A DNA stretch of 57,924 bases from an uncultured Burkholderiaceae bacterium (GTDB lineage Bacteria; Pseudomonadota; Gammaproteobacteria; Burkholderiales; Burkholderiaceae), in assembly GCA_937862845.1 (NCBI GenBank), contig CALMCK010000059.1:1-57924 (forward strand), read 5' to 3'. Position numbers and translations under genes: made by a program. The notes under the pieces are model-generated. The model saw only the letters and a list, made by a program, of their open reading frames with translations, did no database searches and had not been told where the DNA came from. Below, piece after piece: positions 42,566-49,783 of this stretch (positions are counted from its first letter, which is position 1; each line of letters begins with the position of its first letter).

Positions 42566-43375
42566 ATGAAATCTGACACCAGCCCACCCAATATTTACCT
42601 CATCGGCGACGTTCAAGGCTGCTCGAAGGCACTGCGCGCATTGCTCAAGCAAATTCCGCCAGATGCGCAGCTGTGGTTCTGTGGCGATTTAATCAACCGC
42701 GGTCCCGATTCATTGGGTGTGCTTCAGCAAGTTCATGCATTGGGCGAACGCGCTCGGGTGGTGCTGGGCAATCATGACATCCACCTCATCGCGGTCGCGG
42801 CGGGTGCCCGCACATTGAGTCAGTCCGACACTTTGGACGAGATTCTCGCATCGCCCGATAGGGATTTTTGGCTCGACTGGTTGCGCCACCTGCCGCTGGC
42901 GGTCTATGAGCACGGCGTATTGATGGTGCATGCGGGGGTTCTGCCGGAGTGGCGTTTGGACGATGTGCTCAATCATGCACATGAGTTAGAAGACATGCTG
43001 CAAAGCGATGATTGCGAAAGTCGCCTGCAAACTTTATTTGGCAATGAGCCCAATGCGTGGCACGACGACTTAGAAGGCGACGAGCGTCTGCGCGTCATCA
43101 CCAATGTATTCACCCGCATGCGCACATTGAATGCGGACCACAGCTTGGATTTTTCGTTCAAAAGCGTGTTGTCCGATCTGCCAAAGCATCTCACACCGTG
43201 GTTTGCCGTTCGACCACGCGCCAGCGGCGACACGCCAATTTTTTTCGGCCACTGGTCGGCATTGGGGCTGCACACATTTGCAAACACCACCTGCCTCGAC
43301 ACAGGCTGCGTCTGGGGTCGAGACCTGAGTGCCTATCACTATCCCAGCGGACGCATCCTCACCGCGCGTGAGTAA
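42566..43375 (+). CDS. apaH: Symmetrical bis(5'-nucleosyl)-tetraphosphatase
   Basis: IGDVQGC, GDLINRGPDS, LGNHD, VHAG, FTRMR, FGHWSALG, LDTGCVWG. Confidence 0.96.
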   Translation: MKSDTSPPNIYLIGDVQGCSKALRALLKQIPPDAQLWFCGDLINRGPDSLGVLQQVHALGERARVVLGNHDIHLIAVAAGARTLSQSDTLDEILASPDRDFWLDWLRHLPLAVYEHGVLMVHAGVLPEWRLDDVLNHAHELEDMLQSDDCESRLQTLFGNEPNAWHDDLEGDERLRVITNVFTRMRTLNADHSLDFSFKSVLSDLPKHLTPWFAVRPRASGDTPIFFGHWSALGLHTFANTTCLDTGCVWGRDLSAYHYPSGRILTARE

Positions 43376-43391
43376 TCACAGCAGACCATCC

Positions 43392-44066
43392 ATGGGTTTC
43401 CACACATCCACCATTAAACTCGCCGACAGTCGCCGCCACGGCGCAGGCACAGAGCTGTTCATTGTCGAGGGTGACTCTGCCGCGAGCGCCGTGGCGGCGT
43501 TGCGCGACTCAAACACCCAAGCAGTGTTGCCCATGCAAGGCAAACCACTGAACGCCATTAAAGCGGGCCCTGCCAAAGTGCAGGCCTATGGTTTGTTTCG
43601 TGCGCTCAATGACTGTTTGGTCGAGACACCGACCGCCGATTTATTTGCCAGCAGCGCGCCGCGTTTTGAACGCATCATTTTGTTGTTTGACCCCGATGCC
43701 GACGGCATTCACAGCAGCGCACTGATGCTCATGTATTTTTATCAATACTTGCGCCCATGGCTCGACTCTGGAAAAGTCGAATTGATTCACGCGCCGTGGC
43801 TACAAATCACTGTGGCCGAGCGCAGTGAACCTGTTTATGCGTATTCGGAAGCGCACAGTCAAGCATTGCTCACCGACTTGCGCGCACAAAACGTGGCATG
43901 CCAAATCGTGCGCTATCGCGGACTGGCAGGGATTGATGGCAAAACACTGTTTGAGAAATGTATTTCACCCGCGACGAGACGCACGCGGGTGATGTCAGCA
44001 GCGGATGCACTCGCCGCGATTGAGGTGTTTGGTGGCGCTCCAAAACGCGCGGCCCCAGTCAAATGA
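43392..44066 (+). CDS. Stand-alone type IIA topoisomerase B-subunit TOPRIM/C-terminal domain protein (GyrB/ParE-like, no ATPase)
   Basis: KLADS, ELFIVEGDSA, QAVLPMQGKPLN, IILLFDPDADGIH, RYRGL...SPATR. Start at ATG 43392 or GTG 43368. Confidence 0.9.
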   Translation: MGFHTSTIKLADSRRHGAGTELFIVEGDSAASAVAALRDSNTQAVLPMQGKPLNAIKAGPAKVQAYGLFRALNDCLVETPTADLFASSAPRFERIILLFDPDADGIHSSALMLMYFYQYLRPWLDSGKVELIHAPWLQITVAERSEPVYAYSEAHSQALLTDLRAQNVACQIVRYRGLAGIDGKTLFEKCISPATRRTRVMSAADALAAIEVFGGAPKRAAPVK

Positions 44067-44094
44067 CAATTGATTCGACAAGGCTCATGCCCAA

Positions 44095-44892
44095 TTAAAC
44101 CCCACGTTGCATCTGCTCATAGGTTTCCGCAGACATCACGTCCTGACCGAGTGCGCGCGCGACAGCCTCTTGTGTGGCTTTGGCCAGCTCTTGCCGCTGT
44201 GTGTATTGTGCGGCGGGGATGATGGGGCAAAAATGCACATTGGCGGTCAAGCCAATGTTTGAGGCCAGCAACCAAAAACTGCCCAATAAACTGGTGTCGC
44301 CCGCATATGAAGCCACTTGGCTGTGCCGACCATCTTTGGAGTACGACACGCCGACGGGATAAATATGCAGCGCACTCTCTATCGCGGGCTGAAACAAGTT
44401 GCTTTTAAAGGGCAACACATACGTGCCATCTGTAGTGGTGCCTTCGGCATACAGACCAATCAATTCACCATTGCTCGCCGCTTGACTGATTTCTTTATTG
44501 GTTTTAGAAATCATGTGTCGATTGCCGCGCTCGACATACAGTGTGCCCGCGCTGGAAACCAATGCACCCAACAGAGGCCATTTTTTAATTTCTGATTTGG
44601 CGATAAAGCGTGTTGGCTGAATCGCATTGGTGACAAAAATATCCAACCACGAACTGTGATTGCTCACCAGCAAGCCTCGCATGGGCAGCTGAACCGGCGC
44701 GCGCGCCACATTCACCCGCACGCCCAACACCCTCAATAAAATTCTCGACCAACCACGAATGAAATTTTGACGCAAACCCCATCGCATGAAGCGAAAAAAC
44801 AAGAAGGTCAAAAGCAAACCAATCAACACGTGTAACAAAAACACAGTCAATCGCACCACGCCAACCACGCTGCCCAATACATTCATATCCAC
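44095..44892 (-). CDS. 1-acyl-sn-glycerol-3-phosphate acyltransferase family protein
   Basis: SNHSSWLD, FIAKSEI..WP, AEGTTTDG, PFKSNLF. Confidence 0.92.
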   Translation of the reverse strand: MDMNVLGSVVGVVRLTVFLLHVLIGLLLTFLFFRFMRWGLRQNFIRGWSRILLRVLGVRVNVARAPVQLPMRGLLVSNHSSWLDIFVTNAIQPTRFIAKSEIKKWPLLGALVSSAGTLYVERGNRHMISKTNKEISQAASNGELIGLYAEGTTTDGTYVLPFKSNLFQPAIESALHIYPVGVSYSKDGRHSQVASYAGDTSLLGSFWLLASNIGLTANVHFCPIIPAAQYTQRQELAKATQEAVARALGQDVMSAETYEQMQRGV

Positions 44893-48878: not shown

Positions 48879-49268
48879 CTAAACCACCCACCACAGGATT
48901 GTGACAGCCACGCCAGCGGCATCGCTCATGGCGTCTTGCAAGGTGTCTTTGATTGAAAACCACTGTTTTTGTTGCGCCACACTGCTTTTAATCAACCAGA
49001 CCTGTGGTGGCATCTCTGGGCGGGCCGCCGCTGCTCGCTCGCTGGCCACATCGTACAACGCGTCCAGATTGCTGCCGAAATAATCAGGGAAACCCAAGCG
49101 GGTCGCCATCACGGCCAGTGCGTCAAATGCGCTGGTCGCCTCGCGCCAATCAATCACGACCACATCCGCGCCAATCTCATCGACACACACCCGCAAAGTC
49201 TCGCCCAACTCTTCTGTGTGAATCTCGCGCATTTTGCCCGCCGTGCGGCTCCAAATGTCATCGCTCAT
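48879..49268 (-). CDS. Barstar family RNase inhibitor
   Basis: LGFPDYFGSNLDALYD motif; ATGA overlap with the RNase gene. Confidence 0.85.
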   Translation of the reverse strand: MSDDIWSRTAGKMREIHTEELGETLRVCVDEIGADVVVIDWREATSAFDALAVMATRLGFPDYFGSNLDALYDVASERAAAARPEMPPQVWLIKSSVAQQKQWFSIKDTLQDAMSDAAGVAVTILWWVV

Positions 49269-49783
49269 GGTTTAACCCTTAAAAAACTGCGGTAATGGTC
49301 TGACGTGTAGTAGTACTCGCCACTGCTCGCCACATCGCCTGTGCTGCCCTGACCCGCGATGATGCGGCGCGCGCCGCGATCGCTACTGTTGGGTGTGATG
49401 ACGGTGTACTCGCGGTAATAGCCTTTGGGCTGATACGGCAGTAATTTTTCGCGATTGCCAAACACCGAGCCATCTTTGCTGTAGGGAAAACGGCCACGCG
49501 CTTTAATCGTGTCAATCACCTGTTGCGCCTCGACGGGCAACTGGTGGTAGGCGATGCCGCTGCTGTTATCGGTGTTGTTGTCCGCACGCTGGTTTGCGCT
49601 GCGCTCTTTTTTTGACTCGGCACCACGTGGCGGATTGGCCGATTGCTGTTGGGTCGTGATCGTGTTTTGCGCGTGCGCTGGCACTGCGGGTGCATCTTTG
49701 CGCCAGCCATTGCAAGCCGTGACAATCACCATCACGAGCACAACACACAACAACGCGCGCCAGCCGTAACTGCGTTTTAACAT
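49265..49783 (-). CDS. Guanyl-specific ribonuclease (RNase Sa/barnase family), predicted lipoprotein
   Basis: Lipobox IVTAC; FPYSKDGSVFGNREKLLP, YYREYTV, RGARRI, YYTSDHYRSF. Confidence 0.92.
   Translation of the reverse strand: MLKRSYGWRALLCVVLVMVIVTACNGWRKDAPAVPAHAQNTITTQQQSANPPRGAESKKERSANQRADNNTDNSSGIAYHQLPVEAQQVIDTIKARGRFPYSKDGSVFGNREKLLPYQPKGYYREYTVITPNSSDRGARRIIAGQGSTGDVASSGEYYYTSDHYRSFLRVKP

Follow-up and report, generated by a model that had tools for sequence, protein, structure and literature searches.

A free-standing TOPRIM and tail module of type IIA topoisomerase B subunits forms a separate bacterial gene family and may act as an ATP-independent partner of GyrA

The window, by which we mean the whole analysed stretch of 57,924 nucleotides from an uncultured Burkholderiaceae bacterium, contains a gene whose product is the TOPRIM and tail module of a type IIA topoisomerase B subunit, encoded on its own and without an ATPase. 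To our knowledge, type IIA B subunits are thought to be functional only as ATPase-TOPRIM units seated on an A subunit, and a B subunit without its motor (B′) has been met chiefly in the form of a laboratory fragment. Our best explanation of the natural version, which we call mini-B, is that it is a loosely docking, ATP-independent partner of GyrA that modulates gyrase, a reading that we regard as quite possible although short of probable.

Residues are given in E. coli numbering, obtained by offset from the genome's own GyrB with D426, K447, K740 and E744 as anchors, as these are reported in PMC9886550 and structure 6RKS, and residue counts refer to the non-gap rows of the 163-row family clade. 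The features are as follows.

42566 to 43375, plus strand: apaH, a neighbour in this lineage only and outside the system
43392 to 44066, plus strand: stand-alone type IIA TOPRIM and tail (B′) gene, 224 aa from its ATG
43467 to 43481, plus strand: EGDSA; E26 is E424, a metal ligand (152/152), and D28 is D426
43530 to 43553, plus strand: PMQGKPLN; Q49 stands in place of K/R447 and P52 in place of I450, K51 is K449 and N54 is N452
43689 to 43712, plus strand: DPDADGIH; D498 163/163, D500 162/163, D502 163/163, H505 162/163
43914 to 43934, plus strand: YRGLAGI hinge; K740 has become R (150/155) and E744 is replaced by S, G, N or A
43959 to 43979, plus strand: C190 through R196; T754 has become C (152/156) and R196 is R760 (155/158)
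44028 to 44066, plus strand: C-terminal end, stopping after F213 (F777) with a short low-confidence tail
44095 to 44892, minus strand: PlsC/OlsA-like acyltransferase, convergent with the mini-B gene

The preliminary description had reported an open frame of about 224 aa that covers only the C-terminal half of GyrB/ParE, and the frame at 43392-44066 is indeed open as far as the TGA at 44064-44066. Two alternative starts lie upstream, GTG 43368 (232 aa) and GTG 43329 (245 aa). The suggestion that a GTG start would overlap the end of apaH is right for GTG 43368, which does overlap the apaH stop; however, the starts of close homologues (MYFKNTPIKL-type) align with ATG 43392, so that this ATG is the likely start, in which case 16 nt separate the gene from apaH and the two do not overlap. 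The GC and GC3 of the gene are similar to those of its neighbours, and a promoter scan for it gave only chance-level matches. An assembly break was looked for in contigs of four other public runs, which are probably DNA, and none was found: the apaH-gene junction is spanned by one such contig (X3 record 22, 43279-43572) and the 3′ end of the gene by another (X2 record 14, 44015-44256). A single contig of run X2 has an opposite-strand joint at 43974/44015, in the 3′ end of the gene, which is probably an artefact.

The Pfam scan that had been proposed as a check matched Toprim in the 224-aa protein (E 1.6e-11) and DNA_gyraseB_C only weakly (E 0.078), while the NCBIfam GyrB/ParE models match only in their C-terminal third, at about positions 400-614, and far under their cut-offs. 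Neither Pfam nor NCBIfam finds an N-terminal GHKL ATPase or transducer in the protein, and clade members measure 120-367 aa; the large insert of E. coli-type GyrB is likewise missing from the mini-B protein, and neither gyrA nor parC lies beside the gene in the window, so that the four absences first noted all hold. The AlphaFold model (pLDDT 90.3, from a 39-row alignment) predicts the TOPRIM and tail fold of GyrB/ParE, superposing on the GyrB′ chain 5BS8_B with Z 23.6 and an rmsd of 3.7 over 205 aligned residues. Type IIA chains take ranks 1-11 of the structure ranking (Z 16-24), whereas other TOPRIM proteins score below Z 10 (2I5R at 8.9, RNase M5 6TG6 at 7.4), and the TOPRIM carries the EGDSA glutamate and the DxDxD motif that mark GyrB and ParE.

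Could the gene simply be a piece of gyrB or parE, created by recent truncation, by decay or by misassembly? Full-length gyrB (C270, an 837-aa frame, 34% identical to mini-B) and full-length parE (C20, a 659-aa frame, 29% identical) are both present elsewhere in the genome, as had been expected, and neither is near-identical to it. Same-length orthologues abound. The best 120 homologues listed, from a search restricted to 123-392 aa, are 172-258 aa long and 49-99% identical, and a length-unrestricted profile search listed at least 150 clusters at 50% identity; of 149 new clusters, 112 fall within the family clade and none exceeds 367 aa. In an IQ-TREE quick tree with rows thinned at 66% and 72% identity, the 51 family rows stand together on one side of a branch of length 1.04 (SH-aLRT 100), apart from 45 GyrB/ParE rows and nested in neither the GyrB nor the ParE clades; the tree is unrooted and does not fix the parent lineage. 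The idea that stand-alone orthologues form a clade of their own is thus upheld.

Selection points the same way. Nei-Gojobori dN/dS has a median of 0.24 and a maximum of 0.43 in 215 filtered pairs of 84 sequences, the filter capping pN at 0.25, which biases distant pairs; in the 19 pairs with dS below 0.5 it is 0.04-0.39. The whole range of 0.04-0.43 lies well under the value near 1 that had been named as a sign of decay, and the sequences support a real and separate clade under purifying selection. There are a few points on the other side: comparisons for the window's own gene are all saturated (about 0.2 against L021), leaving it without an unsaturated dN/dS partner, some copies look damaged, one of them (G341) matching only profile positions 2-147, and a stop falls within 3 of the 29 matches from the Pirellulaceae-centred sample. 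Low identity to the genome's own B subunits, the separate clade with its long stem, dN/dS in the unsaturated pairs, the 112 of 149 clusters in the clade and the contigs that bridge both gene ends nevertheless refute truncation, pseudogene or artefact for the family, and for the mini-B in general we hold such an origin to be extremely improbable. In the copies L115, L289, L314 and L315 either the frame is short or the match is interrupted by a stop, and G341 also has stops in gyrA, where an assembly error is possible.

The family is hidden in databases, where its members carry the labels 'DNA gyrase subunit B' or 'toprim domain-containing protein'; the ESM Atlas holds only unnamed Toprim clusters of such length. 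A full-text literature search, which omits most subscription journals and supplements, found no prior description. The mini-B is a real variant of the type IIA B subunit, apparently without known prior study.

The five motifs first pointed out (KLAD, EGDSA, PMQGKPLN, DPDADGIH and YRGLAGI) are all present, and across the clade they separate into what is kept and what has been replaced. The acidic ligands are near-invariant, which argues for a working metal site, and S427 (151/152), G448 (161/161), K449 (159/161), N452 (162/163) and L509 (162/163) are also kept. Newly fixed are K447Q (156/161), I450P (160/161), A499P (156/163) and A/S504I (151/163); A432V occurs in 135/152, E466 has become L, F or W, and D774 is mostly hydrophobic in the family rows. 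G430, K433, E466, T512 and E744 have been lost by the family, and G430, K433, I506, T512, M745 and T753, which in canonical B subunits are invariant or almost so, drift or change in it. The YKGLGEM hinge of GyrB/ParE is replaced by RGL(A/G)(S/G/N), with K at position 740 in 2/155; no E is found among the five commonest states shown at 744, and none in the 51-row family alignment (0/51).

These changes fall on positions of known consequence. K740 is reported to contact the scissile phosphate, and a part in religation has been proposed for it (PMC11626157), the E. coli E744A and K740A enzymes did not reach full supercoiling in the experiments described in PMC9886550, and albicidin is reported there to contact K447 and E744. 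Substitution of K447, E466 and E744 would give the protein a different DNA and drug pocket. There is no invariant tyrosine in the family alignment, the best column reaching 98/163, so that for type IIA chemistry an A subunit would have to be supplied by another gene.

The family is patchily distributed. Within the genus 3 of 8 genomes carry the mini-B, and within the order 12 of 401 do, mainly in two families (f8, 4/4; f21, 7/10); a sample of 400 further genomes from across the phylum yielded none. A Pirellulaceae-centred phylum sample gave a short frame in 1 of 301 genomes, the other four matches being full-length B subunits, and in the family of the Pirellulaceae genome on which the sample was centred the mini-B occurs in 29/201. 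One copy, which bears the annotation 'toprim domain-containing protein', is plasmid-borne, in Thiodictyon. This patchy range suggests transfer and loss. On the plasmid, PRTRC-system genes, a helicase and an RNB ribonuclease precede the copy (L316:7992-8672), and TraB/VirB10 fragments follow it. A scan of genome contigs returned 5 family loci of 80, ordinary gyrB and parE dominating; viral contigs gave no pattern matches for the family or for P0237, and the 10 phage records considered of 67 matches are 33-35% identical, the level of ordinary GyrB/ParE.

The position of the gene directly after apaH had been given some weight, and it invites the suggestion that the mini-B is an operon partner of ApaH in Ap4A turnover, the two genes being on the same strand with the mini-B starting 16 nt past the apaH stop. 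The congeners tell against it: in none of five does the mini-B lie within about 1.5 kb of apaH, in G002 apaH abuts the plsC-like gene with nothing between them (an empty site), and in G006 the two are about 1 Mb apart. Synteny thus contradicts the link, which we consider most improbable, and the significance first attached to this position falls away. In G004, G006 and G031 the gene stands beside what we take, from motifs, to be ispD-like or ATP-synthase genes. When 98 and then 28 loci were clustered, no conserved neighbours were found across clades, synteny being confined to the genus, and a crude scan of 128 family loci (676 kb, some of them duplicates) found no gyrA, parC or GHKL motif, its single match being attributable to chance. 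A crude pattern search of 98 loci likewise gave no MoxR or VWA neighbour. PADLOC returned no match of note. The mini-B gene is solitary. As to the rest of the window, the plsC-like gene at 44095-44892 (minus strand) has a lyso-ornithine lipid acyltransferase, OlsA, as its best model, under the cut-off. Judged by its motifs, the frame at 49265-49783 (minus strand) resembles a secreted barnase-like ribonuclease, and the adjacent frame at 48879-49268 (minus strand) a barstar-like inhibitor.

A type IIA A subunit is present in every carrier checked (14/14 and 5/5, G424 being the same as G233), and full-length B subunits in 13/14 and 5/5. In the genus g25, each of four genomes that carry the mini-B (G031, G091, G141, G184; completeness 82-94%) has one A and one B subunit, with no parC or parE seen, which leaves GyrA as the only candidate partner there. 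Three Planctomycetota genomes (G421, G422, G423) have, besides the mini-B, two A subunits of similar score each, and two of the three have two full-length B subunits. Replacement of the type IA topoisomerase by the mini-B is rejected, as carriers keep a type IA relaxase (19/20; 9/9 in non-carriers), and for the same reason a second relaxase fills no obvious gap.

Alternatively, the mini-B might be a non-catalytic decoy or competitor that soaks up YacG or another GyrB-binding inhibitor, or that is dominant-negative on GyrA. The contacts of YacG in GyrB are reported to be H505, L509, R516 and F777 (PMC4083091), and they are largely kept (162/163, 162/163, 126/161 and 121/149, respectively). YacG is found in 28/28 carriers versus 2/14 control genomes, but it is also found in 20/20 non-carrier relatives, so that co-occurrence does not discriminate. 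Moreover, a decoy has no need to fix four acidic ligands, and their near-invariance disfavours the decoy idea of the preliminary description in its purely passive form; a sponge for gyrase poisons is unsuited because the drug-contact positions K447 and E744 are lost, not kept. We judge this explanation improbable.

The LMG..RR.F terminal helix of GyrB/ParE, on which the preliminary description is silent, is absent family-wide, with 39-55 residues after position 740 in most members versus 64-83 in 45/45 canonical rows. More basal short members that keep K740 (P0222, P0237, P0264, P0211) are also without the helix, and basal K740 members already have C754; on this sequence evidence, loss of the helix is old, dating from early in the family. 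The basal short relatives as a group (P0211, P0216, P0222, P0228, P0231, P0237 and P0264) lack the helix; most of them have K740, with motifs of the EGVS/EGMA type. In a GyrA-free crystal of M. tuberculosis GyrB′ (2ZJT), residues from 692 onward are reported missing through disorder (PMC2761264), and the GyrA-free TopBK crystal is described as modelled only to 654, with the remainder disordered (PMC2923608). In S. aureus, R630 and E634 are reported to line the hinge pocket between GyrA and GyrB (PMC9298182). The missing helix is thus the segment disordered in GyrA-free GyrB′ crystals, which counts against ordinary GyrA binding. We take R630 and E634 of the hinge pocket to lie within it. The constructs with reported activity span 485-714 (PMC2761264) and 448-675 (PMC2923608), terminal helix included, so that the precedent does not show the helix to be dispensable.

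These losses give room to a second enzyme-like reading, in which the mini-B would be a GyrA-independent, Mg-dependent TOPRIM phosphodiesterase. The protein would have discarded the helix that docks on GyrA and made its flexible parts more rigid, and it would employ water for nicking or trimming DNA ends or for clearing protein-DNA adducts, much as TOPRIM serves for hydrolysis in RNase M5 and OLD. This reading would account for the early loss of the helix, basal K740 members included, for a protein that ends where the ordered GyrA-free GyrB′ core ends, for a solitary gene with varying neighbours and for near-invariant metal ligands. The α1 and DNA-binding loop regions, reported to be disordered in free GyrB′ (PMC2923608), are also those remodelled here (A432V, I450P, A/S504I, E466 to L/F/W and a mostly hydrophobic D774). 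On the other hand, two basic residues, K433 and K447, have gone and the protein has acquired no DNA-binding domain, stand-alone TOPRIM proteins are structurally far (Z 8.9 and 7.4 vs 23.6 for GyrB′), and neither PADLOC nor the clustering of loci points to a conserved repair or defence neighbour. We also know of no type IIA TOPRIM that acts alone, which we count against this reading. It is possible, if on the doubtful side.

Narrowly ahead of it we place the ATP-independent GyrA partner, chosen because B′ with GyrA has precedent in vitro and because GyrA is present in all carriers checked. E. coli GyrA2/B47-2 is reported to relax DNA without ATP (PMC7897471), M. tuberculosis GyrB′ with GyrA likewise (PMC2761264), and TopBK with GyrA to cleave DNA (PMC2923608). 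Position 740 remains basic, and the absence of E744 does not speak against a functional type IIA enzyme, since T4 gp60 has KGLGSL. There is nevertheless much on the other side: the terminal helix is gone here, though T4 gp60 and the active constructs have it; residues that hardly vary in canonical B subunits have changed; E744A and K740A fall short of full supercoiling in E. coli; the 128 loci gave no gyrA, parC or GHKL motif; and carriers already have a type IA relaxase. The mini-B would dock loosely on host GyrA in GyrB's place, and the complex would cleave and rejoin DNA without ATP but could not supercoil; gyrase would then be modulated either by letting out negative supercoils or by resealing stalled GyrA-DNA complexes. 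That the mini-B is expressed, binds Mg and GyrA, is active and has a role of this kind in the cell is in all of this what we infer.

In its broadest form the proposal is that the mini-B represents a third sort of type IIA B subunit to have evolved naturally, a protein without a motor, moving horizontally and with a rebuilt poison pocket, that would reseal or relax DNA without ATP on host GyrA, or act alone on stalled GyrA-DNA adducts; taken whole, we hold this to be unlikely, if worth stating. If true, nature would have encoded in a gene what the A2B′ relaxase does in vitro, and gyrase would be controlled at a further, new level. A natural B′ family in two distant phyla makes the choice between an ATP-free gyrase core and a new enzyme testable, and it amounts to an experiment of nature on four positions, K447, E466, K740 and E744, that are of central importance for religation and for the action of drugs.

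Set against known systems, the mini-B is closest to the B′ modules of GyrB and ParE (E. coli GyrB47; M. tuberculosis GyrB′/TopBK, 2ZJT, 3IG0 and 5BS8; S. pneumoniae ParE30), with which it shares the TOPRIM and tail fold, the N-terminal boundary and the E..DxDxD site at about 30-34% identity. Those modules are engineered or proteolytic and keep the terminal helix, whereas the mini-B is a natural gene without it and differs further in K447Q, I450P, K740R, T754C and the loss of E466 and E744. Absence of the ATPase, the changed hinge and the missing helix place it outside GyrB/ParE. RNase M5 (6TG6) and the small TOPRIM protein 2I5R resemble it in having a TOPRIM fold, an acidic metal site and no tyrosine, but they reach only Z 7-9 and are without the type IIA tail and hinge. 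OLD is likewise a stand-alone TOPRIM protein; with type IIA chains at ranks 1-11, the closest fold is not of the M5/OLD type. Mini-A, a type IIB homologue that came to light through the mining of databases, is similarly a topoisomerase subunit reduced to a minimum and standing alone, but by the cited account it is type IIB and virus-encoded (PMC7671362), whereas the mini-B is derived from a type IIA B subunit, is mostly chromosomal and has no invariant catalytic tyrosine of its own such as Mini-A and Spo11-like enzymes have. The T4 topoisomerase II subunit gp60 is a natural ATPase-less type IIA B polypeptide with Ser at 744, one of the residues that the mini-B family has there, yet it keeps the terminal helix (LMG..RKEW). 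The T4 protein is reported to be split through TOPRIM, with the ATPase half, gp39, encoded nearby (PMC11461880), whereas the mini-B has the whole TOPRIM in one gene, and the crude motif scan of the 128 loci revealed no complementary ATPase-half gene near it. The mini-B is thus a member neither of GyrB/ParE, nor of the T4-type split subunits, nor of the Mini-A-like enzymes.
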